A stretch of DNA of 64,000 nucleotides from Ostreococcus lucimarinus (taxonomy: Eukaryota). Shown one piece after another: positions 4,489 through 51,342 of this stretch. Position 1 is the stretch's first letter. Each line of letters opens with the position of its first letter. The notes under the pieces are model-generated. The model was not told the DNA's origin and searched no databases. It saw nothing but the letters and a program-made list of their open reading frames with translations. A program made the position numbers and the translations under genes. The DNA lies in assembly GCA_000092065.1 (NCBI GenBank), contig CP000594.1; one strand, written 5' to 3'.

Positions 4489-4583
4489 TTTGAGTTGCGG
4501 CACCCCAACATGATAAAACCGCACATCGACGTCGATGTACCACATGTAAGATTTCTCCAGAACCAATCGTGTGAGTGAAGTGG

Positions 4584-5081
4584 TCAAACCAAGCCACGCA
4601 ACTCGTCTACCGTAAATTGATACTTGTCGAGACTGCGCTTCGAAGGCAGCGTGCCGCGCGCTCGAGCATTCTTGAGGCACGTCTTACGCAGTATTCTTTT
4701 CGCGTGCTGCTTGTAATAATTGAGTTGTCTGTAGTTACCATCGCCGCCGTCCCGCTTCGGCGTATATTTAGCTCTGCCAAGGGTTCGACTCTCGTCCACG
4801 TTCTCGTGGCACGTGTGTTTCTGGCTGAGTCCAGCAGCTCGGGAGTTGAATAAGCCGTCACGCTTCTCTCTCATGTAGGCACTTTTACGTTGATGGAGCT
4901 CTCCAGCTGGAATGTCCTTTTCGAGAACTCTCACGTTCGCGTCGCCAAACTTGAAGATTGGATGCCGTGCGTATTTATGCGAGGCAAGGCGCGCTCTGAG
5001 CGAACCTGTCGTCGATCCGATGTACGTTTTGTTACATTTTGCATTATCGCTAAACATTTCGTACACGCATCCCGACGGCAT
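4584..5081 (-). CDS. GIY-YIG family nuclease (165 aa), element-borne
   Basis: ATG ORF. The N-terminal GCVYEM...KTYIGSTTGSLRARL...H matches the GIY...YIG...R signature. It differs at 15 of 165 aa from the copy at 15262-15759, with the changes clustered in a central linker. Confidence 0.8.
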   Translation of the reverse strand: MPSGCVYEMFSDNAKCNKTYIGSTTGSLRARLASHKYARHPIFKFGDANVRVLEKDIPAGELHQRKSAYMREKRDGLFNSRAAGLSQKHTCHENVDESRTLGRAKYTPKRDGGDGNYRQLNYYKQHAKRILRKTCLKNARARGTLPSKRSLDKYQFTVDELRGLV

Positions 5082-5258
5082 TTGTCCTGGTCACCTATCT
5101 ATCCCTAAGAAAATATAGTTGCCAAAAGTGCTCCTCTTGCGGTTTGCAGTCACATTCGAGAGATCATAGGTGCTCGTGTTGCTGCGTGGGGTGCAAGGTC
5201 TGGGATGTAGATATCGAACCGCCTGATTTCACACCTGGACGTTCGTGATCCGACGAGA

Positions 5259-5449
5259 CCTGACGAAATGACGAACTTGTTTTGTCGTCCCCAAATTCGT
5301 CAGCCCGTCGTTCGGTCACACTTTGTGTGTACCAATGATGAAAATGACGAAATGTTAAAATATTTCAATGTTTATTTTTATTTTAGATCTATGAAAAGCA
5401 ACAGTGTAGACCTTTATGAAAACAGTTCGTCATTCGTCATTTCGTCAGG
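5259..5449. other. Iteron / inverted-repeat / AT-rich block in the element spacer (origin-like), fragment 2 copy
   Basis: Same 191-bp block as 15927-16117 and 44245-44435: CCTGACGAAATGACGAAC ... AT-rich core ... GTTCGTCATTCGTCATTTCGTCAGG. Confidence 0.4.
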
Positions 5450-5657
5450 ATCCAAACCATGGTCTTTTTGGTGTCTTGTTGAGTCTTCATATTGCAAATG
5501 TACGAATCACAAAATTAGTATGAACACCAGACGACCGCCGGCGCGAGCTCCGTCTCCCCCGTTTACCCATTGTCCTTCAGCCACTCGAAGCACCCGTCGC
5601 GGTCAATTTCCCAATAGACGCCATTCTCGTCCCTAGCTTGCCTCAGGTGGTCCTCTT

Positions 5658-5868: not shown

Positions 5869-5889
5869 TCCCCGGTGTCCCGCGCGCGC

Positions 5890-8800
5890 ATGCGTTGGCG
5901 CCGTCGACACTCGTCGACGCCCCGGCCCGCGGTCGTTCGCGTCCACACGGTTCAAGTAGTGCCCTTGGACGACGAACGTGCGCTTGTGCACCCTTGCGCG
6001 GATGAAGTGCGTTTCCATCGTGCGTCGCCGCCGTTCGGTCCTTTAAGGGCGACCGTAGCGCAACCGGGCGATCTCCGTGCGGACGGCGCGATGCCGGCGT
6101 ACGCATCGCAAGGAGTGCACACCGGGGGCACTGCGCCATTCGCGACGTACCGTGCAGCACAACACGCGTTTGCAACGCCAGACGGCATGCATTGGCGCGG
6201 TGGACGCAGCGTTTCATTGAAAATTGCGCGCAGCACTAGTGGGCAAAGCGGCTCGTTGGCACCCCAACGGGTCTTAAACACAATACTTGTTTTGTTCGGA
6301 TACTCGCCCAGGGATCTAGACACACGTGAGGGTAGTCGAAGGGCTAGCGTCCGGTGCCAAAAGAACATGCTCTTTGCTACGGCCACGTGGATGCTGCTAT
6401 TGCTCACGTCGTTTGTCGATGGGGCAATAGTAGACCGCGACGCTTTGAAAGTTGCAGTGGACAACTGTTTGGCGGCAAATGCCACTGGTAACTGCGATTG
6501 TAGCAGTGACTCTGTGGACTGCGGTACCGCTGGAAGTCTTCCCATCTCGCAGTGGGATACGAGCCGCGTGAACGATATGAATAGACTATTCAGCAACCAG
6601 GGTTCATTTAACGCGAATATCTCCGCGTGGGACGTGAGCGGCGTGACGGACATGACTCGAATGTTCGAGGGCGCTAATAGTTTCGCTCAGGACATCAGCT
6701 CGTGGAACGTGGTGAACGTCACGAGCATGGACACTATGTTCTATCGCGCGGATGCGTTCAACGCGCCCATCGGCAGTTGGAACACAGACGGCGTGACAAA
6801 CATGTTTCAGATGTTCCACTCAGCACATTTGTTCGATCAACCGATCGGAAGCTGGAACACGGAACGGGTGACGACCATGCAGTGTATGTTCATGTATGCG
6901 CGTGAATTCAATCAGGATATCAGCTCCTGGAACACGGCCAACGTGGTAAATATGTGGGATATGTTTTATAGTGCGGATGCGTTCAACCAGAACATTGGGT
7001 CATGGAACACAGAGGAGGTGACGGATATGAGGTACATGTTTTATAGTGCGGATGCGTTCAACCAGAACATTGGGTCATGGAACACAGAGAAGGTGACGGA
7101 TCTGAGCGGAATGTTTCAGGGCGCAGCGGCGTTCAACCAGGACATTGGCTCATGGAACACAGAGGAGGTGACAGACATGAGCGGAATGTTTCAGGGCGCA
7201 GCGGCGTTCAACCAGGACATTGGTTCATGGACGACGACGTCGGTGAAGAACATGGAGAGCATGTTCGAGGATGCGACGGCGTTCAACCAGAACATTAGCT
7301 CCTGGAACGTCAGTGCCGTCACAGACTTCGATCGGATGTTCTACACAGCGACCGCCTTCAACAAAGGCATAATCACCACGAAAACGACATGGACTGGCGC
7401 CACCGGCGCGTCCGCGACAGACATGTTCTCCGCCGCCACGGCGTGGCTGCAGAGGTATGAGTACACGACGAATCCCAGCGGAAGCGTCGTGAATGGTCCC
7501 GCGTCGGCTTGGAGTGTGAAGAAGTGTTCGTCCAATCAGTACGTTTTGAGCAACACATGCAAGGCGTGTGCCTCTGGCAAATTTCGCAGTGCTGGTGACG
7601 ACCCTGATGGCTCCAATACGGCGTGTACGTACGCGTCGCCGTTTGCTTCAAATACCCAGCTGAAAGACACGATCGAGTCTTCGTACTGCTTGGGAGGCAG
7701 CGACGCCACGGGCGCGAATTGCACGGACGGCAAGGGTATGTATATAGCGCAGTGGGATACGAGCTTGATCACGGATATGAATCACTTGTTCTACAACAAA
7801 ATTTCATTCGACGCCAATATCAGCACGTGGAACACGGCGAAAGTGACAAAAATGGATAGCATGTTTTCTCAAGCACGTGCATTTAACCAGAGGATTAATG
7901 AATGGAATACATCGAGCGTGGTGACAATGGAAGCTATGTTCCGCTACGCCGAGTCCTTTGACCAGCCCATTGGTGAGTGGAATACCGGAAGAGTCACCAA
8001 TATGAAAGACATGTTTTCGCAGGCGTCTGAATTCAATCAGAATATCGGTAATTGGGATACATCGAGTGTGACGACGATGGATACTATGTTTCGCTACACC
8101 GAGTCCTTTAACCAGCCCATTAGTGAGTGGAATACCGGAAGAGTCACCAATATGAAAGACATGTTTTCGCATGCGTACGCATTCAATCATTCAATCGGTG
8201 ACTGGAACACGGGTGCCGTGGAGAATATGGAGCTTATGTTCCAAAATACCGGCGTTTTCAACCAGGACATCAGCAGTTGGAACACGGCGGCGGTGACTCA
8301 GATGGACTCAATGTTTTACGGTGCTTCAGCCTTCAATTATGACATCACTGGTTGGAGTTCAGCAAGCCTTACGTCGTCGACGGACATGTTTCTCTCCGCG
8401 ACGGCTTGGCTGGCGAGGTACAAGAACACCGCCTCCCCAGGTAGCAAAAATGGGCCATCGTCGAACTGGCTCGGTCCCGGTCCGTTCACGACCAAGTCGG
8501 CGTTGGAGACCGCTACATGGAACTGCTTGGCGGGGAGCGCCGATGCCGATGGCAACTGCGACTGTACGACCGTCGATTGTGGCGCGGCGGTGTATGAATC
8601 GATTTCGAACTGGAACACGAGTTTGATCACGGACATGACCGGTTTGTTTGAAGGTAAGTCTTCATTCAACGCGAATATCGGCGGATGGAACACGGGGAGC
8701 GTCACAAACATGCACCAGATGTTTAACGGCGCGACTGCTTTCAACCAAGACATCGGTTCTTGGGATGTCTCGGATGTAGCGGACATGTATCAAATGTTCG

Positions 8801-11800
8801 GTAGCGCGTCCTCGTTCAATCAAAACATTGGGTCGTGGAACACAGGCAGTGTGACGGATATGAGCGGTATGTTCATGAATGCATCTGCGTTTAACCAGCC
8901 CGTTGGTGACTGGAACACAGGCAGCGTCGTGGATATGAGCGGCATGTTTGAGAGCGTGTCTGCGTTTAACCAGCCCATTGGTGAGTGGAATACCGGAAGA
9001 GTCACCAATATGAAAGAAATGTTTTCGCAGGCGTCTGAATTCAATCAGAATATCGGTAATTGGGATACATCGAGTGTGACGACGATGGATACTATGTTTC
9101 GCTACACCGAGTCCTTTAACCAGCCCATTAGTGAGTGGAATACCGGAAGAGTCACCAATATGAAAGACATGTTTTCGCATGCGTACGCATTCAATCATTC
9201 AATCGGTGACTGGAACACGGGTGCCGTGGAGAATATGGAGCTTATGTTCCAAAATACCGGCGTTTTCAACCAGGACATCAGCAGTTGGAACACGGCGGCG
9301 GTGACTCAGATGGACTCAATGTTTTACGGTGCTTCAGCCTTCAATTATGACATCACTGGTTGGAGTTCAGCAAGCCTTACGTCGTCGGCGAGCATGTTTC
9401 TCGACGCGCCGGCTTGGCTGGCGAGGTACAAGAACACCGTCGCCTCTGGTAGCAAAAATGGGCCATCGTCGAACTGGCTCGGTCCCGGTCCGTTCACGAC
9501 CAAGTCGGCGTTGGAGACCGCTACATGGAACTGCTTGGCGGGGAGCGCCGATGCCGATGGCAACTGCGACTGTACGACCGTCGATTGTGGCGCGGCGGTG
9601 TATGAATCGATTTCGAACTGGAACACGAGTTTGATCACGGACATGACCGGTTTGTTTGAAGGTAAGTCTTCATTCAACGCGAATATCGGCGGATGGAACA
9701 CGGGGAGCGTCACAAACATGCACCAGATGTTTAACGGCGCGACTGCTTTCAACCAAGACATCGGTTCTTGGGATGTCTCGGATGTAGCGGACATGTATCA
9801 AATGTTCGGTAGCGCGTCGTCGTTCAATCAAAACATTGGGTCGTGGAACACAGGCAGTGTGACGGATATGAGCGGTATGTTCATGAATGCATCTGCGTTT
9901 AACCAGCCCGTTGGTGACTGGAACACAGGCAGCGTCGTGGATATGAGCGGCATGTTTGAGAGCGTGTCTGCGTTTAACCAGCCCATTGGTGAGTGGAACA
10001 CAGGTAGCGTGGCGGATATGAACGGTATGTTCAGGAGCGCATCCGCGTTTAACGAGCCCGTTGGTGCATGGAACACAGGCAGCGTGACGGATATGAGCGG
10101 CATGTTTGAGAGCGTGTCTGCGTTTAACCAGCCCATTGGTGAGTGGAACACAGGTAGCGTGGCGGATATGAACGGTATGTTCAGGAGCGCATCCGCGTTT
10201 AACCAGCCGATTGGTGAGTGGGCCACAGGAAGCGTGGCGGATATGAGCGGCATGTTTGAGAGTGCATCCGCGTTTAACCAGCCGATTGGTGAGTGGGACA
10301 CAGACAGCGTGACGGATATGAGCAGCATGTTTGAGAGCGCGTCTGAATTCAATTATAACATCACTGATTGGAGTTCAGCTAGTCTCACGACGGACATGTT
10401 TCTCGATGCGACAGCTTGGCTGGGAAGATTTGCACGCAAAGATGGCGAAGACACCACTGATGGCCCACCATCCAAGTGGGGCGAACCGTGTGGCAATGAG
10501 TGGTACGATGCGACCTTTGAGGAGAAGTGTGAGCCAAGAGTGAACGGGATTGAAGTGAAAGGATGCAATTCTACGTGCGGGATAAAAGACAACTGGCGGT
10601 GCGACAATTTCGACTTGCTACGCCCCCCCGGTGATGACTTAGATAGCTACAATTGTACGTGCGACAACCCGGCGGGCACGTACGCATCGCCTGATCTTGA
10701 TTGTGCTCGCACAGATTGCATTTACGGCGAGCGGTGTCTCGCTAACGGCCTAGGCTGTGCGCCCGGTGCCGGTGGAAACGCATGCGACCGGTGTTTGACG
10801 GCCGCTGATATTGCCGAGCTTCCACTCAACGAACGAAGTCTCAGCAAGAATGGCTATTACAAGACTGGGCAGATGTGCACGGCTTGTCCAGAGACATCGG
10901 CTGGTCAACTTTTCGCTGCGGCTGCGGTTGTCGTCGTCCTCGCTTTTTGTGGTTTCAAAGCCTCTCAATTGATGGGCGCTCAAGCGACGAACAATTTGAA
11001 GAAAATTGTCGAGTCGCTGCAGTTCTTCTCTCTTTCGCTCAGTATGAGTATCAAGTGGCCTGGACCCGTACTCAATCTCGGTAAATATTTGGAAGCTTTC
11101 ACGTTCAGTATTGAGTTTCTACGACCCGAATGCGTCGCTACGGGGCTGAATTGGCTCAATATATTTTTGTCCTCAGTGTTTTTCGTTCCCGCTCTCATCT
11201 TCATAATCATCGTCGTGAACAATAGACGGGCGAAGCACCGTTACAAAACAACGGTGCGCGCGATCGACAGTGAACGACACGAGGATGGCGAAACAGTCTA
11301 CTGGATCAAGAAACCAGGTTTCTTGTGGGGTACGCGGAGAGCTTACGAGTCCAAGGGTGGAGATAAGATTGTTCGCGAGTTGCAGCGCCAGTATCGGTTT
11401 CGAGCCGCGCTTCGATCTTTCGGCGTACTGTCGCTGACCGTCCTATACCTTCCCATCGTGCGTATGTGCCTTCAGTCATACGATTGCATAAAGATAGACG
11501 GCGTGGATGGGCTTCGATTGGAGCATGACATAGATATCCTCTGTGAAAGCGAAGGGCACGTGATCATCCAGGCCGCCGCCGCGGTGATGTTGGCCATTGT
11601 CGGTATCGGCATGCCAATTTACGTCATAATGCAAGTTCGTAAGATCCGTTTGAGCGGTAAACTGGATGATCCACAGACTATCGACTCGTATGGTCCGTTC
11701 TACGACGTCTACCGGCGCGAGGAGCTCACACACGATCACAAATTGGAGATTGCGAGCATTCGACAAACCGCGGTCGAGTCGTCCTCATTTCGACGAGGCG

Positions 11801-12597
11801 AAGGCACGAGCGACGAACGTCCTTTCGATGCAGCAACTGATGATATTGCAGAAGAAATCGCAAATGAAGCCAGGGTCGATACGGAAGAAGATTCAAGCGA
11901 CGTTGATCGTGTTGACGTCGAGGACGATAGTGATACTCCACCACCTCAGAAAGTTGCATCCGGTCTCGGTAAGCTCGCTCGGGCGTTAACGATGACGAAG
12001 TCTGCTTTAGGCCGGACGACGTCAGCGAAAGCGCGCGAACGGGCACATCGAATGCACTGGAAGGACAGGTTCGCGCTTCACTACCTGGCCGTTGAACTAG
12101 TGCAGAAGAGTTGCGTCATTTTGACGACGTCTCCGCTAGTGGCCGAAACCGCGGTGAGCGGTTGGGCTCTGGTTGTCGTACACTGGTTTACCGGCGCCTT
12201 CGTCTACGTGTGTCAGCCTTGGCGCATCATGACGCTCGGCTTCGGCAAATACAAGGTGCGAAATTGCTTAAACAAAGTCGAGTCCTTGGCTGGATTTTTG
12301 CAGGGCGTGGGACCGTTCTTGGCGATGATCTTCCCTGTTCAGAGAAACGAGTTGGGCGAGGTGAAGCAAACTGTGACACTCTCAGCCATAACTGTCCTGC
12401 TGACCATCATAATCACCGGGCTGCTTTCTATTCGTATCATTGTTTTCGTCGGCGAACGCGTCGCCGTCAAACGAAAGAAGATGGACATTGACAAGGATCC
12501 CGAGAAATGCATGCAAAATGTTCACAAACAACTGGTCAAGCTCGCAACCAACAGAGCGATTGTGAGCATGTTGCTTTCAAGGCAGATTTCGACATAA
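5890..12597 (+). CDS. Large DUF285/BspA-like leucine-rich-repeat surface protein with Cys-rich stalk and C-terminal multi-pass TM region (~2,236 aa)
   Basis: 6.7-kb uninterrupted frame.
- It holds dozens of ~25-aa units of the type FN(Q/A)xIxxWNTxxVTxMxxMF.
- A hydrophobic segment MLFATATWMLLLLTSFVDG lies at 6367.
- A Cys-rich region lies at about 10.5-10.9 kb, followed by about 7-9 hydrophobic helices.
- The start is uncertain: an in-frame ATG at 5890 lies 22 nt after the 27-nt motif, and 6367 is the alternative. Confidence 0.85.
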   Translation: MRWRRRHSSTPRPAVVRVHTVQVVPLDDERALVHPCADEVRFHRASPPFGPLRATVAQPGDLRADGAMPAYASQGVHTGGTAPFATYRAAQHAFATPDGMHWRGGRSVSLKIARSTSGQSGSLAPQRVLNTILVLFGYSPRDLDTREGSRRASVRCQKNMLFATATWMLLLLTSFVDGAIVDRDALKVAVDNCLAANATGNCDCSSDSVDCGTAGSLPISQWDTSRVNDMNRLFSNQGSFNANISAWDVSGVTDMTRMFEGANSFAQDISSWNVVNVTSMDTMFYRADAFNAPIGSWNTDGVTNMFQMFHSAHLFDQPIGSWNTERVTTMQCMFMYAREFNQDISSWNTANVVNMWDMFYSADAFNQNIGSWNTEEVTDMRYMFYSADAFNQNIGSWNTEKVTDLSGMFQGAAAFNQDIGSWNTEEVTDMSGMFQGAAAFNQDIGSWTTTSVKNMESMFEDATAFNQNISSWNVSAVTDFDRMFYTATAFNKGIITTKTTWTGATGASATDMFSAATAWLQRYEYTTNPSGSVVNGPASAWSVKKCSSNQYVLSNTCKACASGKFRSAGDDPDGSNTACTYASPFASNTQLKDTIESSYCLGGSDATGANCTDGKGMYIAQWDTSLITDMNHLFYNKISFDANISTWNTAKVTKMDSMFSQARAFNQRINEWNTSSVVTMEAMFRYAESFDQPIGEWNTGRVTNMKDMFSQASEFNQNIGNWDTSSVTTMDTMFRYTESFNQPISEWNTGRVTNMKDMFSHAYAFNHSIGDWNTGAVENMELMFQNTGVFNQDISSWNTAAVTQMDSMFYGASAFNYDITGWSSASLTSSTDMFLSATAWLARYKNTASPGSKNGPSSNWLGPGPFTTKSALETATWNCLAGSADADGNCDCTTVDCGAAVYESISNWNTSLITDMTGLFEGKSSFNANIGGWNTGSVTNMHQMFNGATAFNQDIGSWDVSDVADMYQMFGSASSFNQNIGSWNTGSVTDMSGMFMNASAFNQPVGDWNTGSVVDMSGMFESVSAFNQPIGEWNTGRVTNMKEMFSQASEFNQNIGNWDTSSVTTMDTMFRYTESFNQPISEWNTGRVTNMKDMFSHAYAFNHSIGDWNTGAVENMELMFQNTGVFNQDISSWNTAAVTQMDSMFYGASAFNYDITGWSSASLTSSASMFLDAPAWLARYKNTVASGSKNGPSSNWLGPGPFTTKSALETATWNCLAGSADADGNCDCTTVDCGAAVYESISNWNTSLITDMTGLFEGKSSFNANIGGWNTGSVTNMHQMFNGATAFNQDIGSWDVSDVADMYQMFGSASSFNQNIGSWNTGSVTDMSGMFMNASAFNQPVGDWNTGSVVDMSGMFESVSAFNQPIGEWNTGSVADMNGMFRSASAFNEPVGAWNTGSVTDMSGMFESVSAFNQPIGEWNTGSVADMNGMFRSASAFNQPIGEWATGSVADMSGMFESASAFNQPIGEWDTDSVTDMSSMFESASEFNYNITDWSSASLTTDMFLDATAWLGRFARKDGEDTTDGPPSKWGEPCGNEWYDATFEEKCEPRVNGIEVKGCNSTCGIKDNWRCDNFDLLRPPGDDLDSYNCTCDNPAGTYASPDLDCARTDCIYGERCLANGLGCAPGAGGNACDRCLTAADIAELPLNERSLSKNGYYKTGQMCTACPETSAGQLFAAAAVVVVLAFCGFKASQLMGAQATNNLKKIVESLQFFSLSLSMSIKWPGPVLNLGKYLEAFTFSIEFLRPECVATGLNWLNIFLSSVFFVPALIFIIIVVNNRRAKHRYKTTVRAIDSERHEDGETVYWIKKPGFLWGTRRAYESKGGDKIVRELQRQYRFRAALRSFGVLSLTVLYLPIVRMCLQSYDCIKIDGVDGLRLEHDIDILCESEGHVIIQAAAAVMLAIVGIGMPIYVIMQVRKIRLSGKLDDPQTIDSYGPFYDVYRREELTHDHKLEIASIRQTAVESSSFRRGEGTSDERPFDAATDDIAEEIANEARVDTEEDSSDVDRVDVEDDSDTPPPQKVASGLGKLARALTMTKSALGRTTSAKARERAHRMHWKDRFALHYLAVELVQKSCVILTTSPLVAETAVSGWALVVVHWFTGAFVYVCQPWRIMTLGFGKYKVRNCLNKVESLAGFLQGVGPFLAMIFPVQRNELGEVKQTVTLSAITVLLTIIITGLLSIRIIVFVGERVAVKRKKMDIDKDPEKCMQNVHKQLVKLATNRAIVSMLLSRQIST
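7963..9978 (+). repeat. Near-identical 2 x 1,008-bp in-frame tandem duplication inside the DUF285 gene
   Basis: The unit starts with CAGCCCATTGGTGAGTGGAATACCGGAAGAG at 7963 and 8971. Track ORFs repeat at exactly +1,008 bp (8321/9329, 8337/9345, 8190/9198). Confidence 0.95.
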
Positions 12598-15013: not shown

Positions 15014-15148
15014 TCACTCTTCCTCGCCCCGTTCTTTGATACACGTTCGCCCCACGACGGTTCGACCTGAAATTTTTTTCGGTTTGGCTTCGAACCCGAG
15101 CTTGGTCAGCGCGCGTCCGATGAGCATCTTGCTCACGGTGCAGCCGTT
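15014..15148 (-). pseudogene. C-terminal 44 codons plus stop of the second helicase-like gene family (fragment)
   Basis: The minus-strand reading is NGCTVSKMLIGRALTKLGFEAKPKKISGRTVVGRTCIKERGEEE*. Its first 37 nt match 3095-3131 (35 of 37). It abuts the left end of element copy A. Confidence 0.3.
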
Positions 15149-15261
15149 AAAAATATCAACTTTTTTGTTTCAGTTGGGGCACCCCAACATGATAAAACGC
15201 TCATCGACGTTGATGTACCGCATGTACGATTTCTTCAGAACCAATCGTTCGAGTGAAGTGG

Positions 15262-15759
15262 TCAAACCAAGCCACGCAACTCATCTACCGTAAATTGATA
15301 CTTGTCGAGACTGCGCTTCGAAGGCAGCGTGCCGCGCGCTCGAGCATTCTTGAGACACGTCTTACGCAGTATTCTTTTCGCGTGCTGCTTGTAATAATTG
15401 AGTTGTCTGTAGTTACCATCGCCGCCGTCCCGCTTCGGCGTATATTGAGCTCTGCTGTAGGCCAGACTCTCGTCCACGTTCTCGTGGCACGCGTGTTTCC
15501 GACTGCGTCCAGGAACTCGGGAGTTGAATACGCCGTCGCGCTTCTCTCTCATGTATGCACTTTTACGTTGACGGAGCTCTCCAGCTGGAATGTCCTTTTC
15601 GAGAACTCTCACGTCCGCGTCGCCAAACGTGAAGATTGGATGCCGTGCGTATTTATGCGAGGCAAGGCGCGCTCTGAGCGAACCTGTCGTCGATCCGATG
15701 TACGTTTTGTCACATTTCGCATTATCGCTAAACATTTCGTACACGCATCCCGACGGCAT
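15262..15759 (-). CDS. GIY-YIG family nuclease (165 aa), element-borne
   Basis: ATG ORF with GCVYEM / KTYIGST / R / E(MREKRDG) / N(FNSR) signature order. The C-terminal 60 aa are identical to the 4584-5081 copy. Confidence 0.85.
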   Translation of the reverse strand: MPSGCVYEMFSDNAKCDKTYIGSTTGSLRARLASHKYARHPIFTFGDADVRVLEKDIPAGELRQRKSAYMREKRDGVFNSRVPGRSRKHACHENVDESLAYSRAQYTPKRDGGDGNYRQLNYYKQHAKRILRKTCLKNARARGTLPSKRSLDKYQFTVDELRGLV

Positions 15760-15926
15760 TTGTCCTGGTTACCTGTCTATCCCTAAGAAAATATTGTTGT
15801 CAAAAGTCCTCCTGCTGCGGTTTGCAGTCGCATTCGAGAGACCGTATCGCTGCGTGGGCTGCAAGGTCTGGGATGTAGATATCGAACCGCCCGATTTCAC
15901 ACCTGGACGTTCGTGATCCGTCGAGA

Positions 15927-16117
15927 CCTGACGAAATGACGAACTTGTTTTGTCGTCCCGAAATTCGTCAGCCCGTCGTTCGGTCACACTTTGTGTGTAC
16001 CAATGATGAAAATGACGAAATGTTAAAATATTTTAATGTTTATTTTTATTTTAGATCTACGACAAGCAACAGTGTAGACCTTTATGAAAACAGTTCGTCA
16101 TTCGTCATTTCGTCAGG
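15927..16117. other. Iteron / inverted-repeat / AT-rich block between helicase and nuclease genes (candidate replication origin or bidirectional regulatory region)
   Basis: The heptamer TGACGAA occurs at 15929, 15937 and 16013, and its complement TTCGTCA at 15964, 16094, 16101 and 16109. An 18-bp inverted repeat brackets an AT-rich core (AATGATGAAAATGACGAAATGTTAAAATATTTTAATGTTTATTTTTATTTTAGATCT). Confidence 0.4.
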
Positions 16118-16182
16118 ATCCAAACCATGGTCTTTTCGGTGTCTTGTTGAGTCTTCATATTGCAAATGTACGAATCACAAAA

Positions 16183-18393
16183 TTAGTATGAACACCAGAC
16201 GACCGCCGGCGCGAGCTCCGTCTCCCCCGTGTACCCATTGTTCTTCAGCCACTCGAAGCACCCGTCGCGGTCAATTTCCCAATAGACGCCATTCTCGTCC
16301 CTACCTTGCCTCAGGTGGTCCTCGCGCATTGGGATCCTGTGGCCCTTTTCCTTCTTGAAGAAGTCCTTGAGCTTATTGCCGACCCTGGTCGCGCTATCTT
16401 GACCGCGCGTAGCCGCTGGCAACCACGTCTGGTATTCGATGAAGATGTCACTGTTGCGGATTTTATTTCCAACCCACTTCTCAGGGAATTCAACAGTGAC
16501 GCAATGCTCAAACCATCGAGTGAACTTGGGCATGCAGCCACGCTTCATTTCCGAATACGCGTCGGTCGTAGGTCTGTCTTTCACGTAGTCAAAAGTCGAT
16601 AGGTCGAGCCCCATGAGGTGGTCGTAGATCGCCCTCAAGTTCCTCAGATCCTTGATGTACACGTCGCGGAATTCCTTCAAGAATCCAGTCTGGTCGTTCA
16701 AGTGCGTGAGCAGTGGCTCCATAACGACGAACCGACGATCACTCATTTCCAGAAAAACGGGGTAGTCGTCGTTCGAGAAAAATAGGAACCCAACCAGATT
16801 CATGATGACGTACAGCTGCACGTGCTTCGGGTTGATTGTGAAACTCGTGTCCGTGAGCATCGATTTCAGCAACTTTCTATACATTTTCATGATGCACTCA
16901 TCTGCTTCGTTCAACGCGAGACACTTTTTGCCTTCAATCATGTTCGCATGCGTCCCAAATATGTCCTTTTTCGGATCAGCCGTCTCATGAAACGTCTTGC
17001 CCATGAGCGCATGAAGCAGGTGCAGGAAAGTGCCCTTGCCGGTACCTTGGACTCCTCGAAACACGAGCGACGTGATCGGCTTCTCTTCGGGTCTCTGGAA
17101 GAGACACGCGAACCAATTCAAAGCGTACTCGAGCGCATTTTCTGAACCGCCACATAGCACCAGGAGGAGCTCGAGGAAAGGCTTTACGTCGCCCTCTTTG
17201 CCCAGTTCACTGGGGATGCCTTCGACCGGATAGCCTCGCCACAGATTGTACGTCTTGTTGCTGCAGTTTTTCGGGACGACATCGAGGGTATCGTACACCC
17301 GTTTATTGTCGTCGTCGAGCCACTTTTCGATGAACCCGTTCTTCTTGCCTTTCCTCAAGACACCGTTCTCATCGACAAAGGAGAGTTCTCGATAGCGCCT
17401 CACCAAAGCGGCCTCGCTGAACTTGGTAATGTCCCCGGTGGTTCCATAACAGCTATCGTCGCAGAAGAGGTCCTTGGTTAAGATCTTTGCGACGTGCTTC
17501 TCGAACTCACGGCGGACCTCGATGTAGCCCGCAGACGTGCCCTCTTTGATTTCGTTCTGCTCCTTTTCGGTGATACCGGTCACCAAACACCCAACCTCAA
17601 AGCGAAACTGTCTGGGCTTGCAGTTGCCATGGTTTTTCACGGTGAGCACGCCGAGACCGACCTCGGCGACGTAAAAGTGATTCCCACCGCCCCTTCCATT
17701 GCCTTCGTGGAAGCCCCCACAGCAAGGACATTGGCCCACAGTGGTGCCTCGCTGTGGGCGACATTGGTCGCATTCAAAATCATACGATGTCGCTCCACTG
17801 AGCCAATGTATGCCCGTGAACCCCATTTCCTCGAGCAAAGGTGTCACAGATGCTTGCGTAAAGCTGCACTCCGTGTCCGCGCGTTCGACCTTGTGACCGA
17901 CTTTGCCATCAAGGAAACTGTACAAATCGTTGGGCATCGGTGGTAAATTGTTGATGTCGCCTCGGAGTAGCTCGTAGCCCGGGGCATCGGCACCGACCAC
18001 GTAGTTACCCGTCGTACGGATATCGACGAACCCTTCGATGCCCACCGTGCCTTTCCAATCGCCGAATCGTTCTTCGTCCCATGCGAAGTACGTGTGGTAC
18101 CCGCCTGATCGCGTTTTGACGATGTACGCGCCTTCCCCGCCAACCTTGCGCGTCAACATTTCTTCCGTCAGTTCAAACTCGCACTTGCCACCGTAACAAT
18201 CCCAGTCGATGACGAGGACACGGTTCGGTCGCCCTGTCAGCACGCCGTACATTTCTCCTGGGATGACTTTCTGCGTATTCTGTTCATAGTTTGCTTCATC
18301 GAGGAACCCTCTGCCGCATGTTGGCTCCTTGTTCTGGTCGAGTGGGATCAGATGCATGCCGTTCGTAAATTCTCTGGCGTCCATATATATCAC
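16183..18393 (-). CDS. PrimPol (AEP primase) / Zn-ribbon / D5-like SF3 helicase fusion protein, 736 aa
   Basis: Intact ATG ORF.
- AEP motifs: VIDWD, SGGYHTYF, DIRTTGNYVVG.
- Cys cluster: CDQCRPQRGTTVGQCPCCGGFHEG.
- Walker A is GVQGTGKGT, Walker B is LALNEAD and motif C is FFSND.
- A second copy at 44501-46711 differs at 13 of 736 aa. Confidence 0.9.
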   Translation of the reverse strand: MIYMDAREFTNGMHLIPLDQNKEPTCGRGFLDEANYEQNTQKVIPGEMYGVLTGRPNRVLVIDWDCYGGKCEFELTEEMLTRKVGGEGAYIVKTRSGGYHTYFAWDEERFGDWKGTVGIEGFVDIRTTGNYVVGADAPGYELLRGDINNLPPMPNDLYSFLDGKVGHKVERADTECSFTQASVTPLLEEMGFTGIHWLSGATSYDFECDQCRPQRGTTVGQCPCCGGFHEGNGRGGGNHFYVAEVGLGVLTVKNHGNCKPRQFRFEVGCLVTGITEKEQNEIKEGTSAGYIEVRREFEKHVAKILTKDLFCDDSCYGTTGDITKFSEAALVRRYRELSFVDENGVLRKGKKNGFIEKWLDDDNKRVYDTLDVVPKNCSNKTYNLWRGYPVEGIPSELGKEGDVKPFLELLLVLCGGSENALEYALNWFACLFQRPEEKPITSLVFRGVQGTGKGTFLHLLHALMGKTFHETADPKKDIFGTHANMIEGKKCLALNEADECIMKMYRKLLKSMLTDTSFTINPKHVQLYVIMNLVGFLFFSNDDYPVFLEMSDRRFVVMEPLLTHLNDQTGFLKEFRDVYIKDLRNLRAIYDHLMGLDLSTFDYVKDRPTTDAYSEMKRGCMPKFTRWFEHCVTVEFPEKWVGNKIRNSDIFIEYQTWLPAATRGQDSATRVGNKLKDFFKKEKGHRIPMREDHLRQGRDENGVYWEIDRDGCFEWLKNNGYTGETELAPAVVWCSY

Positions 18394-18695
18394 ATAAGAA
18401 AAGAATTCTTTAAGCCGTGTTTTTCCTGGTCACATCGGCGCGATGACTGATTTTCAAGTTTTTCAACAGCCTGGAAAAGCACGCCAGCGCGCCCCACTGG
18501 TCAACGTTTTGCCACTTTTTCGACGAGATCGGGGTACTGCAAAGCACACGGCGAAGACCCGAGAGATCAGCAGATCGACGAACTCCGCAGTGAGCTCAGT
18601 GACATCGTGTCAAGACTGGAGGCGGTGGAGAGCGCCTAATCATCGTTTTTCTATATCGCGCCATTCGTGGACAACAAAATATACGTCCACATATA

Positions 18696-20437: not shown

Positions 20438-23400
20438 TCAACGGCTTGATTCCAAGGTCGAGCCGTAATCATACGCTCGCGAGCCTACGAACACCGCATC
20501 GCACTCGTTTATTGGCGCGCGTCGCGACTTACGACGTACAATCGCCACAAACGCAACAAAGGTAAACATCGCAAGGTACAGAGTTAATGTGAAGGGTCGA
20601 GGCGCCCCCAATCTGGCTCTCGACTGTTGCACGGCGTTACATTCGCACAGTTCCAATGCCTTGCTTCGTTGCTCGGCATTTTTCCAGTTACGCGTGAAGC
20701 TGACATTAAAGTTTGCGACTCCACGAAACATTTCGTCGACGTTCGCGTCAGCGCTCAATACCCACGAATTCAGATCTTGATTGAAACTTTTGGCGAAAGC
20801 AAACATCCGATGAAAGCTCTTGACGTTGGAGACGTTCCAATCGCTTAGGTTTTGATTGAAATTTCGATTGTACGCGAACATTTCTGACATGTCCGTAGCA
20901 GACGCCGTGTTCCACGCACTGATGATGGTCGCCGCCGTCGATCCAACGCCATTCAGACTATCGTAATGTGTTTGAAATAGACTTCTGAAATTCCTCACCT
21001 CACTTGTATCCACCATGTTTAGAGGCCCAAATCTACAACAGTAGCTGTACTTCGAGAAATTCGACCCCATGCAGTTACTCCGAGCTGACTCTTGGCTTCG
21101 GCAGGAGCGTATCACTTGGTATAAACTCGAACGATCGCCACGAAGTGGTGATAAACCTTGCGCCGTACCAGAATACGCAAAGAGATCTATAAACTGTTGA
21201 TGATCGCTTCGGTGAGTATTGACTTGTTTTTCCTTGATATTTTCGGCAAATGACGGCGAACGATAGCTTGGATTCAGAAAGTAGGTGGAATGGAACATCC
21301 CGTAAGCGGTCGTAACCGAGGAAACATCCCACGTCCACTTTCGCAAATCGCGCGAGAATGCGCGCGCGCCATTGAACATGTATTGCATGTTCTGAACTTT
21401 TTTCACGTTCCATGACGACAAATCCTGATCAAAACTTGTCGCATATTGAAACATTTTCACCATCGTCCCGACTTGCGCGACATTCCAAGATCCGATTGAC
21501 GCGTTGAAGTCTCTCCGATTTTGGAAAAGTTCATTCATGTTCGTTACCCTACTGACATCCCACGTCTCCATGGTCCCAAACTGTAAGTCTCGACACATAC
21601 CTCCGACGGGATCGACTTCCAAACATTTATCTATGATATCATCGATGTTGTCGTTATCGATGTGCTCCATAACTTTGGTTTCAGCGATTTTCGGTTTCCA
21701 ATTGCACGGGGGGCCATGTCTCATGTTCGACTTGCTGATTGAGACGAGTTTGAAATCGAACGAGCTCCGTCTGCCTCTTGCATAGTGACTGAACCATTTG
21801 GTAACGCGAACTTCGTCCTTCAATGCGTACTTCACCTTCCACGCGGCGGCGTTCAGGAACATGTCACCCACGATTGGCTGCAGAACGGTCGATTGCGACG
21901 TTGCGTGCTGGGCGAGACAAACGTACTCGCCTCGAACGGCAGCTTCGCCGCGGCCCCAATTTGTAATGTCGGCATCAAACATCCAAGCGTCGTCAAACAT
22001 TTTATAAAAGTCTGTGACTGATCTCACGTTCCAATCCCCCAAGTCTCCGTTAAATTTATAGGCGTTGGAAAACATCTGGTTCATGTCTTCAACCTGGGCG
22101 ACGTTCCAAAGTTTCAAAGAGCCCCGGAATCGACGCGCGCCGTAGAACATGCGGAACATACTCGTGACTGAAGCAACGTTCCAGTTTTCGATATTGCCAT
22201 TGAAGTCGCGTGCGCCCGAGAAGGCTTCAGACATATCGAACACACCTGAAGTATTCCAGGTTGACATCGCGCCATACTTGGAGTCGACGCAAGCGCCATC
22301 AGTGGGATGTGTCTCCAAACATTTGCCGACGGCGTACAAGAAATTACCTTGATGTACTTCGGCGAAGGTTGATGAATTCGTTGAGTTCTTGCTCGTTGTA
22401 GGCACGGTGCACTTAGCTGGCGAAGCACGATTTGGTTTCTTCGCCAACCCAACACAGTCGACATCACCATATATGGCGTGGCGACCATATTTCCCGTCTT
22501 TGTCGCGCCCCCACTTGTAGCCAATTTTCGTATTGTATTCCAGGCAAGTGCGCGGCTTGCAGGTCCACTTCGACACGGGACCAGAGAGAGACCACGTTCT
22601 TCTACGTTCGTGGCCTTCGCGCGTGCATGCCTCAAGCCAGGCCGTCGCAAGACCAAACATATTGGCACTCCCCAACCTGTCCAGACTCGCGGAATCCCAC
22701 TTGGAGATATCTTGCGCAAACTTCGACGCGCCGTAAAACATCCCCTCCATATTGTACACGTTGCGTACGTCCCAATTGCCAATGTCTTGATTGAAACTCG
22801 AAGCGCCTTGAAACATGCGCAACATAAATGTTACGGAACTCACATCCCAAGCAGATATATCGCCATCGAACTGGTCTCTGCCCTTAAATGCCTCGCGCAT
22901 GTCGGTGACTCGGCTTACGTCCCAGCCAGACATACATCCGTGTCTAAATCCAGAGCAGTCTCCGTACTTTGGGTCTTCACTCAAGCATTCTTCAATCGCA
23001 TCATAGAAGACAGCATTTTCAATGTTTACGTGCTTTCGTTTCCAAACAATCGGTGGTCCATCACTTTTCCCTCCGACGGCGAGAGGATCGCGATAAAACT
23101 CCATTTGAAACTCCGTGATGCCGTCGAACATCTTCGTCGAAACTTCCAACGAAGCCGTCGACCAAGAAGTGACATCAGGAAAGTCTGGGACCACTACTCT
23201 GGAAAACATCTCGCGCATGTTTTTCACTTTTCGCACATTCCAGTGCGATATCTCTGATGGGATCTTTCCAAAGCGAACGCCCTTGAACATCATTTCCATA
23301 CTTGTAGCCGAACTCGTGTCCCATGAAGCAAATCCTGAAGGCAAGCGGGTAGTGCGATATCGCGATGAAAACATGCTCCTAAAGTTCGTTATACCAATGG

Positions 23401-26400
23401 TGCGCATGTTGGATACATCGCAGGTCGTCGACACGGGTGAATTCAAACCAGAAAACATGGAATCAGCATCGACGTTTGATCCGAAACTCCATGAGATGTT
23501 GACATCCGTGCACTCAGAACCCTTCATCATTGCCTTGATATCATTGGCAGAGTCTAGTTTCCACGCGCTCGCTTGACGAAGAATGGGTGGTTTTGAGAAA
23601 GCAAACGCGGATTGCATCTTCTGAACTCGTTTAGGATCCCATTTGCCAAGACCGTCGATGGCGTCGTGACCAATCCGAGCAAATGCAAGCTCCATGCTCT
23701 TCACATTCCTCACGTCCCAAGAACCAATATCGCCGATGCGTCCTTGATTTGTCATTTTGAAGAATATTCCGTCCATGTTGGTGACCGAGGAGACATCCCA
23801 ATGTTTGAACATATTGTGCCAATCACGCCCCAGACCACTGAAGGTGAACCGCATGCTCCGCACGCTACTTACATTCCACGCACCCAAGTTACCAAAAGTC
23901 GCTCCCGGTAGAATGACCACAGTGCGTGGAACATCTAATCTGAAACGCGTTTCGGAATGCGAAGATGCCTTCCATTCTCCCGTATCATTGAAATACCGTT
24001 CTCCATATCTGAAAATGTGGTAATTATAGCGCTGCATGAACATTGCATCCATGTTCACGACTGAACTCGTGTTCCACTGTGACAAGTCGCCCACGTCGCC
24101 TTCAAAATCCTCAAACATCGCACCCATGTCCGTCACGGAGCTCACGTCCCATCTCGACAGGTCACGTGAAAAGTTGGGCGCGTCCTTGTATGCAGCACCA
24201 AACTCTCCAGGGCTTGCTTGAAAGAATTTCCATCGCAAACATACGTAGCCGAACGTTCGGTAATGTCCCGGAAACGCGGCTTGGTCAAACTGAAAGTGGT
24301 TAACAGTACCAATTTTGAACGCGTACGACATGTCGGTTACTCGCGAGACATCCCATTCTGACATCGGCCCGTATCTCAATTCGCATGTCGTTAAATTCTT
24401 TCTGCATGCGATGATCGCGGTATAGAAATCATCATCTGTACGAGTCAAGTTGAGTGGTTTGGATACCAGAGCGCTCAAAAGTCGGCGTCCAAGTGGAAGC
24501 CGAACAGGATCGTCGATACTTTTACCCAAACGTGCGCTGACGCTCATCGCCGGCGACTTGGCGGAGGTGAGCTCCTCTTCGAGCCTTCGCAGCTTGGCCC
24601 GCAAACCTACAAGCCCTCGGTTCCTCGGATTGCGAGCCTCGATCCGCGCAATTTTTGTGCGGAGCTTTGTCATTTCCGGCGTCGGGCTCGGTGGCGGCGG
24701 GCTCGGACTTGTCGACGGCGTGTCGCCGAAGAGCTCCTCTTCGAGCCTTCGCAGCTTGGCCCGCAAACCTACAAGCCCTCGGTTCCTCGGATTGCGAGCC
24801 TCGATCCGCGCAATTTTTGTGCGAAGCTTTGTCATTTCCGGCGTCGGGCTCGGTGGCGGCGGGCTCGGACTTGTCGACGGCGTGTCGCCGAAGAGCTCCT
24901 CTTCGAGCCTTCGCAGCTTGGCCCGCAAACCTACAAGCCCTCGGTTCCTCGGATTGCGAGCCTCGATCCGCGCAATTTTTGTGCGGAGGTTTGTCATTTC
25001 CGGCGTCGGGCTCGGTGGCGGCGGGCTCGGACTTGGTGTAGTCGTCAGATAATCGATCGATGAGCTCGGCGATTGACTCGGACTCGGCGAGCTCTTCTCT
25101 TCGTCAGCGTCCTCCTCTTCGTCAGCATGTTCGACTTCGTCTTTGTCTGCCTCTTCGTCCTCCTCTTCGTCTGCATTGTAAGGCGATGGACTCGGACTCG
25201 GCGAGCTCTTCTCTTCGTCAGCGTCCTCCTCTTCGTCAGCATGTTCGACTTCGTCTTTGTCTGCCTCTTCGTCCTCCTCTTCGTCTGCATTGTAAGGCGA
25301 TGGACTCGGACTCGGCGAGCTCTTCTCTTCGTCAGCGTCCTCCTCTTCGTCAGCATCTTCGACTTCGTCTTTGTCTGCCTCTTCGTCCTCCTCTTCATCT
25401 GCATTGTAAGGCGATGGACTCGGACTCGGCGAGCTCTTCTCTTCGTCAGCGTCCTCCTCTTCGTCAGCATGTTCGACTTCGTCTTTGTCTGCCTCTTCGT
25501 CCTCCTCTTCGTCAGCATTGTAAGGCGATGGACTCGGACTCGGCGAGCTCTTCTCTTCGTCAGCGTCCTCCTCTTCGTCAGCATGTTCGACTTCGTCTTT
25601 GTCTACCTCTTCGTCCTCCTCTTCGTCAGCATTGTAAGGCGATGGACTCGGACTCGGCGCACTTGCTTGTGCGTCGATACCTGTATATTCTGGTTCATCG
25701 GATGGCGTGTAGTTCTGAAATGGTTCATACGAATCTGTGGTTGTATTCGTTTTACTCGACGCAGCACGATGACCGATGGTATCCGCGTCGACCTCAAAAC
25801 TAAAATTGCCATTAAGACGGAAACTGGACTCCTTAGAGTCAAGAATTGCTTGGTCGTCGTCACTCACGGATACTTTATCGAGAATTTTGAGCGAATGTAT
25901 CGTTGGTAGCGGAGCACCTAGTACACTGCGGCGTACGTCATGAAGACGATCGCGAGTGGACAGCAAACGACGGTGACTTGGGCTCGTGGCAGTACACATC
26001 TTGAACAGTTTCTCGTCGTGCAATGACGAATATAGTACCTTTTTGCTTCGGGCGAGCACATCAAAGCTTGAAGTAAGTAGCGCGTCTAAATGACTCGGTA
26101 TACCAACGCCCCTCACGGACGTTAACAATTCAAACGAAGAAGCTCGTGGCGGTAAACTTTTCAGCTTTTCACGCCTCGCCCACGGGAGAGGCTTGGCAAG
26201 GTCTACCATTTCTTCCTCACCGTCTTCATTTTCGCATTTCCCATCGTCGTCGTAGACGCACATTTGACAGGTTGTCTCGTTGATGCTTGCTACATACTTG
26301 AGCGGTAGTTCGGGCAGTACAATATTCTGTAAAAAGCCAGTCACGTTTCCCACGATACTCAAACCCTGCTCTGAATCGGGATATTTCCCCCAGAAATTGA

Positions 26401-29400
26401 GCACCGGTTTGACGTGAAGATCCAGAAGGGTCCCGAATCGACTCTTCACATCACGCGCACCGTGGAAATTACTCTTTGATCGGTTCACCATGGCGTACAA
26501 AGGCCGAAGCGCATCTGTTGGCTCGACAAGTCGAGTTTCACATTCACCCCATGCCGCGCGAATCAAATCTTCGTACACATACGTCACATCCGATGTGTTG
26601 AACCATTGGCGTTTGCAATTATGATTCAGCGTGTGCAGCATCCATTTTCGCGCTTCGATATCGCAGAACGGCCGAGTAACTTGAATGACATCCTCCATGA
26701 GAATTTTGTGTATCTCTGGGTCCTCTTTGCATTTTAATGTCATAGATACTGAGCGTATCATCTTGTAGAATGTGCTCGGGTAATACATCGCGTGTGGGCG
26801 AAATACGGCGTACACACGCTTGATGAGGGTTTGATTCGTGATTGACGCCACGTCGATGTGGTTAATGAGCGTCTCCCAAGCCTCGATGTTGTGTGGATTC
26901 GATTCTAACGCTGAGAGTAAAATCGCACCGACGCGATCGACAACTTGAGCGCCAGCATCCATGTACACGTTCTGGAACAAAAGCATCGCCAAGCGCGTCT
27001 CAACGTACGAATCCAACCCTTTGCTTACCGCTCTTGAAAGTGCACGGACATGGTCGACGGAAACGATGGCATTCTTCTTCACACCTGGCGCGTTACGATG
27101 TTCCAAAATACTCAACGTCGTTCTCGCAAACGTCGAGTTGGTGGGCCAATGCAGTGGTACCGTACGCCACAAGCGCGAGAGTTCATCAAATTTAAAGCTA
27201 ATACCTCCAGGAATGGCTCCCCTCTTTTTGGAAACTTTCGTCGGGATCCCGAGACATGTTTGCATACCGATGGACAGATAAGCGATCATCGCGGCGTCAC
27301 CGCCGTCTTGAGCGATCCGTGGAAGAGAATTCGGGTGCCAGTTTGACGCCTTGCATAGAGTTTCCGCGCGTTCGGTGACGTTTGCGTGATTCAACCTCAA
27401 CCAAGTTGTATTGAGATTCCTTCTGCTGGCAATGTGCATGCATTCACTCGTTGGAAAGTGCGCACCAGCGTGCATGGCTACGACTGGCCACGGAATTCGA
27501 CCAAAATTCATCGCTCCGTTGACGTTTGCATTCAACGTGCTGTGCATGTAGTGAATTGCCTGGAGCGGACTCGGATTCAATTCTCGACTTCCTGGCATGG
27601 CCAATGTCCCATTTATGAGCTTCTTCCTGATTTCACAGACATCGCCGACTTCTTCATCCCGAGACTGATCCAAAAGCGTTGAAGTAGAGTCTGCGATGAA
27701 ATTCATATGACGATAATTGAAAGCTGTCGCAAGGATAGCATCGGATATGTTCGCGGCATCACCTCTAAAATAATTTGCCAAATATCGCACGTGATCCAAC
27801 GCTTTCATGTGCGTCGGCATCGTTAGACTATAAAGTGCTTTTCGAAACGAAACGCCTTGGCTTAACTTGGTGTGTTCTATCCATTCCCAAATAGGGTCGC
27901 TCTGCGGTATTCTCGTCAGCCGCTTGCTGAGACGCTCGTTGGATTCGAGAACTTGTTTTGAAAGCGCCTCACTCCAAGCACCCTTTGCATTTTGAACAGC
28001 AATCAAGAGCTCGTCTTGTGGAAACGCTGTGAGGAAACCACGACGCATAAATGTGTGCTCAGCAGAAATGTCCGAACGTGATAGAGAGGACAAATCAAAT
28101 TGAAGATGATGAATGAGCCGACACGTACCCGCGGCCGCAAACCCAATGAAGACGAATCCTGGGCACTTGGGCGTGTTCATACACAGAGAAGAGCACACAT
28201 CGACGGACACAGACACCGGCGACACTGGATAACTCGTCATCGTCATTTGCGGGAGGAGAACAAAATGAGTTGCAGCCGCTCGTCGCGCTGTGGTGTTCCA
28301 TGCGTGCGGTAAATCCATGATCGGTGTTGACCCTGAGACGCTGATTCTCGGCCGCGAGCCTTTAAACAGATTTGAGGAGCACCCTGTCTGTTGTTCCGAG
28401 GGTTTTGTCACGGGGTCGCAGACGACATCGCAATGCGCGTCTTCGTCATCCCTTCGAACACACTCTACGTCACGAATACGGATGCCGTTGATGCACGCGC
28501 CCCACGTAGTTTTCACGCGCCAGGACGCGCCTACACATCTGGGAATCTGAACATCGCAAGCGCCAGTTTCACCGCGTGTCCAACCATTCAAGCAGGTACA
28601 CTTGTAGTCGTAAGTCCAAGGTTTCGTGTCGTGATAATGTTTCTCACATGCGCCATTCGCGCACGACGTTGCGCCTCTTCTGGTTAAAGAGCAAGCTTGA
28701 GGAGGACACTCTTCACGCGTGTTGCAACTCCGAATACTTTCTGGCCTCGCGAGGGGACATAGAGCGCTTCTGGCGAGAGTCCCATTGGCATACGTACACG
28801 ATAACGATCTGACTTGAAAGGGCCGAGCGTCGTAGTCCAAAGTAGCACACTGTGCGCTGCACTCGCCATATGGCATACTGATCCAGTCAGCGTCGTCTCG
28901 TGGAGGCGGCGCGTAACATTCACGTTCGCGAAAATCTGTCATGATTACCCCGTCAGGTCGAGGGACAAAGCAACATCCATGATCTTCGCATACCAAAGCA
29001 CGAACTTCAGGGCTCGTGGAGCCCCGTCGATCATCGCTCTCGTAGCCAGCACACACCATTCTTCCGGAGTCTTGTCTACACTGCGCATCGCAATGGAAAT
29101 GATTACAGAATTCCTTTTCAGTAGGCTTTTCTGCGTGCGTACAGTGATCATCGGGCAGCGTTATATTTGTGCCTCTTTCGTCTTCGTGCGAGCACCAGAC
29201 CCTACGAATGCGCACTCCACCACCACACGATTTGGAACAAGAGGTAAAAGGGGAGGATTTCCAACGCACGAATTTGAGCTTTGTGAAGAAGCTTGACTGG
29301 ACGGAACTCACCACGAATTCGCGTAGGCCGTCGATCGTGACTGGGTGTTCGTACTCGACATTCGTGTACAACGTTGATCCAGATTCGCTCTCAATCGGCT

Positions 29401-36493: not shown

Positions 36494-36520
36494 AAACTCG
36501 ATTTTTGCTAGGGTTTAGCG
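36494..36520 (+). promoter_or_regulatory. Conserved 27-nt 5' motif, third copy
   Basis: Exact AAACTCGATTTTTGCTAGGGTTTAGCG, 65 nt upstream of the ATG at 36586. Confidence 0.6.

Positions 36521-51304: not shown

Positions 51305-51342
<38 letters not shown>

Follow-up and report, generated by a model that had tools for sequence, protein, structure and literature searches.

The window analyzed here, a stretch of 64,000 nucleotides from Ostreococcus lucimarinus (contig CP000594.1 of assembly GCA_000092065.1), carries three copies of a repeated unit that consists of a primase-helicase gene, a block of short repeats and a putative GIY-YIG-type nuclease gene. Copy B spans 15148-18558 and copy C spans 43410-47116, while copy A is rearranged and comprises 4422-5657 together with an inverted piece at 1667-3095. 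Read along the minus strand, copy B holds the primase-helicase gene (16183-18393, 736 aa), the repeat block (15927-16117), a variable 5' region of the nuclease gene of ~167 bp (15760-15926) and the nuclease gene itself (15262-15759, 165 aa). In copy C an intact primase-helicase gene of 736 aa (44501-46711) precedes the block (44245-44435), both on the minus strand, and in copy A the block (5259-5449, minus strand) adjoins a disrupted, rearranged helicase gene. The first-pass annotation of this DNA had described a 191-bp block shared by all three spacers between helicase stop and nuclease start; we recover the same block in each, and the spacer lengths of 423-433 bp follow from the ORF coordinates. 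As the three copies are paralogues of 94-97% identity, they were counted as one observation, and independent support for any function comes only from diverged relatives elsewhere.

The N-terminal helicase part of copy A is inverted relative to its block and nuclease; the gene lacks about 1 kb, and its parts are separated by other sequence of 1327 bp (ORF 3416-4270, no Pfam match). The same arrangement is found in metagenome contigs L020 and L021 at 95-97% identity, and it is therefore a real, stable allele. In copy C the GIY-YIG ORF (43266-44075) is frameshifted close to its C-terminus and thereby extends to 269 aa, against 165 aa in copies A and B. At the nuclease-distal end of the repeated unit (43400-43480 and 4370-4470) lie a poly-T/A-rich stretch and a GTTGGGGC(A/C)CCCCAAC palindrome, and a piece of ~63 bp at this end is tandemly duplicated in copy A and in L009. 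Because the copy boundaries are ragged, the unit does not have the look of a clean cut-and-paste transposon. Giant intron-free ORFs occupy the sequence between the element copies (5875-12597, 20438-35908 and 36505-42996): one of 2240 aa made up of DUF285 repeats with 75-nt periodicity, one of 5156 aa with 114- and 162-nt tandem repeats, and one of 2163 aa with Tectonin and F5/8 type C domains. The GC content is ~51% over the first 50 kb of the window and then 60-74%, with a sharp rise at about 50000-52000, and the window seems to cross the border from a low-GC outlier-type region into normal Ostreococcus sequence.

The primase-helicase

The 736-aa protein carries AEP/PrimPol motifs in residues 1-170, which are readable directly in its sequence as DxD (DWD), sGGYH (GGYH) and DIRT. 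These are followed by a Cys-rich zinc-finger-like segment (residues ~205-260), an SF3 helicase domain (DUF5906, PF19263; residues 445-554, E = 2e-14) and a C-terminal winged-helix-like domain (residues ~644-718, window 16240-16464). Matches to the protein include phage "DNA primase" families and, in the PDB, the NrS-1 primase-helicase, and the PrimPol family PF09250 is recorded in its relatives. A megablast of the element against a phage collection gave no match, and a scan of IMG/VR with the helicase alignment found no relative. The chromosomal copies may be inert relics; dN/dS values of 0.11-0.16 between helicase copies, which indicate purifying selection, argue against this. The cluster of window-type helicases at 90% identity (P0001) holds 601 metagenome member sequences, which suggests that natural Ostreococcus populations contain numerous copies with slight differences.

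Architecture of the repeat block

In the sense of the helicase gene the order of parts is the stop codon, ~70 nt, R1, TTTTCATAAAGGTCTACAC, an AT-rich core, R2, ACAC..AAGTGTGAC, R3, ~20 nt and R4. R1, the helicase-proximal arm (16093-16117, minus strand), comprises three direct repeats arranged as CC-TGACGAA-A-TGACGAA-TGACGAA-C, and R4, the outer arm (15927-15944, minus strand), comprises two inverted repeats; the sequences of the two arms are GTTCGTCATTCGTCATTTCGTCAGG and CCTGACGAAATGACGAAC, respectively, and for the 25-nt arm GTTCGTCATTCGTCATTTCGTCAGG the window has exactly three occurrences, with zero expected. Between them lie the 19-mer TTTTCATAAAGGTCTACAC (16072-16090, minus strand), the AT-rich core (16020-16055), the two inverted repeats of R2 (16004-16019, minus strand; TTCGTCA and TTCATCA in the helicase sense), a short palindrome (15982-16001; GGTACACAC-AAA-GTGTGACC) and the single direct repeat R3 (15964-15971, minus strand; CTGACGAA in the helicase sense). 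The core, a candidate DNA-unwinding element, is 36 nt long and 92% AT in a 191-bp block that is 62% AT overall, and the near-complementary arms around an AT-rich core that had been noted earlier are accordingly located.

All seven TGACGAA sites reported before were found again, at 15929, 15937 and 16013 on the plus strand and at 15964, 16094, 16101 and 16109 on the minus strand, together with an eighth, degenerate repeat TGATGAA at 16004-16010. This pattern of seven exact and one degenerate repeat in both orientations recurs in 3/3 copies (5261-5447 in copy A and 44247-44433 in copy C). The repeats are real, but the heptamer is not the full unit, which is 8 bp long and reads (A/C/G)TGAYGAA. 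In the whole window TGACGAA matches 46 times against 16.5 +/- 3.6 expected; 21 of these matches lie inside the three blocks, 12 in an unrelated coding tandem repeat with a 114-nt unit (25100-25628), and the other 13 correspond to background level. A clustered short repeat and an adjacent AT-rich element, two features of an iteron-type origin, are thus both present in the block.

Position and neighbors of the block in relatives

Protein and contig searches gave four close lineages, of which lineage 1 is the window type (L007-L009, 98% protein identity), lineage 2 comprises L002/L010 (84%), lineage 3 comprises L001/L011 (81%) and lineage 4 comprises L003/L013 (57%). Distant relatives (L004-L006 and L025-L030), on contigs of 4-21 kb, show 33-34% identity. 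In the four lineages (57-98% protein identity) the block starts ~70 nt past the helicase stop with any downstream neighbor. In the window this neighbor is the GIY-YIG gene, in L001/L002 a small minus-strand ORF together with a P-loop ATPase, and in L013 another block. The block measures 197-199 nt in lineages 1-3 and 177 nt in lineage 4, R2 holds two or three inverted repeats across lineages, and the AT-rich character of the core is kept in every lineage despite sequence drift.

The window nuclease is a putative GIY-YIG enzyme by virtue of its homology to ORFs in L002 (85-663), which passes the Pfam GIY-YIG cut-off, and in L004 (2995-3513), which falls slightly under it; searches of Pfam and PHROGs with the 165-aa protein itself gave no matches. 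The GIY-YIG gene lies on different sides of the helicase depending on the lineage. At the nucleotide level lineage 1 is homologous to lineages 2-4 precisely as far as the outer end of R4, and what comes directly after the block in lineages 3 and 4 (L001, L013) is found in copy C as a remnant beyond the nuclease (43281-43378, minus strand). The nuclease gene and its ~167-bp 5' region therefore constitute an inserted cassette. The block had been placed between two element genes, and it does lie in the spacer, but these comparisons assign it to the helicase module rather than to the nuclease, which is a later insertion at the edge of the block.

The L001 element lies on a 112-kb contig, where the helicase is accompanied by a conserved upstream gene, a small ORF on the minus strand, an ORF that resembles a P-loop ATPase and additional ORFs. 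Extra conserved genes are found in L001 and also in L004-L006; on some of the distant contigs both the upstream gene and an ORF of 436-449 aa are seen again. This type of element looks like a polinton-like virus (PLV). For the L001 P-loop protein, Pfam and PHROGs yielded a marginal terminase-like match only, and neither these searches nor a homologue search, which returned unnamed proteins, nor a structure model (of no use at pLDDT 32) confirmed a capsid identity for the extra genes. Beside the helicase in the window copies there are no capsid genes, the units being helicase, block and GIY-YIG gene only. One to two PLV/virophage capsid genes have been reported in Ostreococcus genomes (PMC10120064). 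Two independent lineage 2 metagenome contigs end in (TTTAGGG)n, ~580 bp past the block (L002:3889-3951 and L010:4189-4251), and the (TTTAGGG)n is joined within the ORF that encodes the P-loop ATPase in L001; these ends represent either a subtelomeric copy or a healed chromosome end.

The repeat word differs between helicase lineages

The word TGAYGAA accompanies helicases that are 81-98% identical to the window protein, and the word GGTGGTG accompanies a chimeric protein with a different helicase/C-terminal half. The lineage 4 protein, P0004, shares 85-92% identity with the window protein in residues 1-280 and 20-60% in the remainder, and the lineage 4 block has GGTGGTG/CCACCAC at all four places R1-R4. 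A putative recognition helix reads SATRVGNKLK in the proteins of lineages 1-3 and EGKFRNRMTK in that of lineage 4. In L003/L013 the upstream gene and the primase half are lineage-3-like, and the repeat word has switched with the helicase half; the replication module seems to have been exchanged as a cassette. The helicase at L013:182-2380 is a recombinant, and it is followed by a GGTGGTG block and a lineage-3-type block in tandem.

Relatives at 33-34% identity have the words ACTTGCCAC and GGTGGAGGG. In L025, ACTTGCC(A/C)C matches 12 times against 0.83 expected, with 8/12 matches within 190 nt after the stop; in L027, GGTGGAGGG matches 7 times against 0.06 expected; and L004 has an inverted repeat with 48-nt arms and internal repeats 3' of the helicase. 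The arrays of the distant relatives lie 3' of the helicase gene and start 10-130 nt past its stop, and an AT-rich center, surrounded by the arrays in L025 and L027, is present in these two as well as in L001 and L002. No such array follows the helicase stop in L005, L006 and L030. An array 3' of the helicase is common but not universal among relatives. Each of the four words (TGAYGAA, GGTGGTG, ACTTGCCAC and GGTGGAGGG) goes with its own helicase/C-terminal lineage, though we acknowledge that, with block and gene physically adjacent and the lineages few, co-inheritance alone would mimic this link.

Constraint on the block

Among six lineage-1 copies, 6/191 columns of the block are changed (3%), with no indels, compared with 39/180 columns of the other spacer sequence (22%, p = 2e-8), and between lineages 1 and 3 the p-distance of the block is 0.23 against a helicase pS of 0.43. 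Whether the heptamers stand out from neighboring bases, as would be expected from the first-pass annotation, depends on the comparison. When lineage 1 is compared with lineage 3, 9-11% of heptamer-core positions differ, as opposed to 28-29% of the other block positions (p = 0.003-0.009), but in lineage 2 they are no better conserved than other block positions. In lineage 1 alone 0/6 variable columns fall in heptamers, for which the chance is ~0.13 and which is not significant. The 19-mer TTTTCATAAAGGTCTACAC, nearly invariant in lineages 1-3, and the GTGTGAC part of the short palindrome, invariant in 5/5 block types with that of GGTGGTG among them, equal or exceed the heptamers in conservation. 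The pRN1 primase starts at GTG.

Candidate functions of the block

We favor, with moderate confidence, the reading of the block as an origin that acts in cis, or as a site of initiator assembly, within a replication module of polinton-like virus descent. On this reading the module consists of the PrimPol-SF3 helicase gene plus the ~260 bp directly past its stop codon. We arrive at the origin reading because of the observed repeat architecture with its local motif, its fixed position, the constraint, the change of the word with the helicase/C-terminal half and the domain order of the protein, and because of structure and precedent, to which we return below.

A transcriptional control region, in which the 3' end or terminator of the helicase mRNA is combined with a promoter for the downstream module, is possible but rather doubtful. 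On this proposal the palindromes would form a bidirectional terminator or a giant-virus-style 3' hairpin signal, and the repeats would be transcription-factor sites. Such a role is in keeping with an intergenic block that has hairpins on both strands and that in some relatives is flanked by convergent genes, a setting in which termination in both directions would help. It is also in keeping with the TGACG core of the repeats, which is a bZIP-type core, and with the 19-mer, which contains TCTA and reads TATAAAG (TATA-like) in lineage 2 and CATAAAG elsewhere. However, the repeat word is absent from the other intergenic regions of the same element; in the 12.9 kb of L001, 7/8 GTGAYGAA matches lie inside the block, and the word is not a general promoter motif. 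The word moreover changes with the helicase lineage and not with the downstream gene, and the block persists beside co-oriented, convergent or second-block neighbors. The nuclease cassette arrived with its own, poorly conserved 5' region, and eight repeats in 190 nt are far beyond the need of a terminator. The terminator/promoter reading is weakened by these points.

We regard it as improbable that the block is a recombination or target site, whether attP-like with arm-type repeats, a GIY-YIG recognition region or a former element terminus. The attP-like variant would assign the site to the conserved gene that precedes the helicase and has the appearance of a tyrosine recombinase. The nuclease cassette was inserted exactly at the outer arm, the block is near the contig end in L004 and L027, and PLV ends beside the primase-helicase have been proposed to serve integration and replication (10.1101/2023.10.16.562556), all of which agree with a site of this kind. 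Yet the window lineage, which is without the recombinase gene, keeps its block under constraint, the upstream gene of L003/L013 stays lineage-3-like while the word follows the helicase half, and the GIY-YIG gene changes sides of the helicase between lineages. A Pfam search and a profile search against the PDB, in addition, did not confirm the recombinase identity of the upstream gene.

Folding and strand pairing

Single strands of the window block fold better than shuffled sequences on both strands (z = -3.6 to -4.0). As DNA the fold z is -3.8 for the window block, -6.0 for L025 and -10.0 for L027, and the arrays of L025 and L027 fold as large DNA stem-loops. A consensus structure for lineages 1-3 has 95.8% of cells paired against 30-44% in slid controls. 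By sequence comparison R1 pairs with R4, with two-sided changes retained between lineages. Across lineages 1-3, 8 pairs are changed on both sides, which represent few independent events. Most of these two-sided changes affect the base next to each heptamer (A/C to G), altered in all four repeat groups at once, and the C/T position drifts independently between the arms. One word in all repeat groups of every lineage would be expected if a common protein binds them, and retained complementarity would be expected if a stem-loop is required. These readings do not conflict, and since the arms retain complementarity, a role as a stem-loop or cruciform has the same likelihood as simple binding to iterons.

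Since the two strands do not differ in how well they fold, folding cannot separate RNA from DNA structure. It is very unlikely that the block gives a structured non-coding RNA, for example a snoRNA-like one, or acts in the 3' UTR of the helicase mRNA: the fold z near -4 and the compensatory changes in the outer stem would suit it, but both-strand stability is expected of any DNA palindrome, independent RNA stems need no common word in four repeat groups of every lineage, and the C-to-T arm differences give C-A mismatches on one or the other strand. The Rfam U8 C/D-box match that could be cited in its favor (15965-16088, plus strand, E = 0.03) is weak, scoring 25.9 bits against a gathering score of 41. 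We rejected U8 snoRNA as a chance match, since it is sub-threshold, the repeats resemble a C box, there is no D box and the match is not conserved in the GGTGGTG block.

Discussion

Our analysis suggests a way in which the primase-helicase and the sequence directly behind its gene may work together. In the mechanism that we propose for the origin reading, the C-terminal winged-helix domain would recognize the 8-bp repeats (A/C/G)TGAYGAA, of which three direct and two inverted repeats flank an AT-rich core of 36-50 bp and one direct and two inverted repeats lie on its far side. The complementary arms could permit extrusion of a stem-loop or cruciform. The helicase domain would oligomerize at the block and melt the AT-rich core, and the PrimPol domain would lay the first primer. 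Binding, melting, priming and the firing of chromosomal copies are steps that we infer.

Precedent for this arrangement comes from the Sulfolobus plasmid pRN1, in whose putative origin a 100-nt stem-loop directly 3' of orf904 (PrimPol-SF3-wH) is required, and from phage BIP-1, whose layout is as in pRN1 (Berkner et al. 2014, PMC4234260). As in these systems, the window protein has the initiator order of AEP PrimPol, SF3 helicase and C-terminal winged helix, the last being winged-helix-like in the window protein, and a large stem-loop, or imperfect palindrome of 100-200 nt, lies directly past the stop of the initiator gene, with its structure kept while its sequence has diverged. Genetics in pRN1 indicates that stem integrity can be the essential feature, and ORF904 could not be shown to bind the stem-loop specifically (PMC4234260). 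Unlike the pRN1 stem-loop, which is without iterons, the arms of the window block are 8-bp repeats around a distinct AT-rich core, and the window element is virus-derived, chromosomal and located in a eukaryotic alga, with its candidate origin known from sequence alone.

The alpha protein of phage P4 binds origin repeats via its winged helix (PMC4234260), and by analogy P4 ori/crr may resemble the window system in the use of a single primase-helicase with a C-terminal winged helix and short repeated sites, followed by unwinding and priming. The P4 primase, however, is of the bacterial Toprim type and that of the window protein is AEP/PrimPol, and we draw the likeness from the summary in PMC4234260 only. 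A looser analogy may be drawn with animal virus origins. The core origins of SV40/polyomavirus and papillomavirus combine an SF3 initiator with inverted short repeats by an AT-rich tract and a palindrome, and in SV40-type origins a double hexamer assembles and melts the DNA. The SF3 helicase, the inverted repeats, the AT-rich tract and the palindrome would be the shared features, whereas the initiators of SV40 and papillomavirus use a Rep-like origin-binding domain without a primase and have no homology to the window protein outside the SF3 core.

Among PLVs a mobile "replicative end module" has been proposed that consists of a primase-helicase, a tyrosine recombinase and a GIY-YIG nuclease, and the same preprint guesses that the terminal inverted repeats are the PLV origin (10.1101/2023.10.16.562556). 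The window units and their relatives resemble this module in the primase-helicase and the GIY-YIG nuclease, to which the relatives add the conserved gene ahead of the helicase, and also in having a nearby repeat element that is postulated as an origin. They differ in that our candidate is an internal iteron/palindrome block 3' of the helicase and not a terminal repeat, and in that the L001 block lies between replication and ATPase/capsid-like genes, while the window copies are without capsid genes. In the literature that we searched we found no mapped origin in polinton-like viruses or their primase-helicase modules and no description of this block, and the sole proposal among these papers names the terminal repeats. 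The kind of element is known, and the window block would be a further instance of it, in a eukaryotic alga.

These results provide a concrete candidate origin 3' of the helicase in several lineages, with its own repeat word in each, and the natural swaps of the repeat word together with the C-terminal half offer a ready-made comparison of specificity. They also link, across domains, eukaryotic virus-derived elements with the pRN1/BIP-1/P4 style of replication start. In Ostreococcus, intact and selected helicase genes, each with a candidate origin, sit in a hypervariable low-GC region, a type of region that has been discussed in connection with virus resistance. It is conceivable, though we consider it quite unlikely, that the helicase-plus-origin modules in this low-GC outlier-type region are live replicons that fire, perhaps on prasinovirus infection, to give episomes or local over-replication, and that could in this way drive copy-number changes or rearrangements or act as a virophage-like antiviral decoy.
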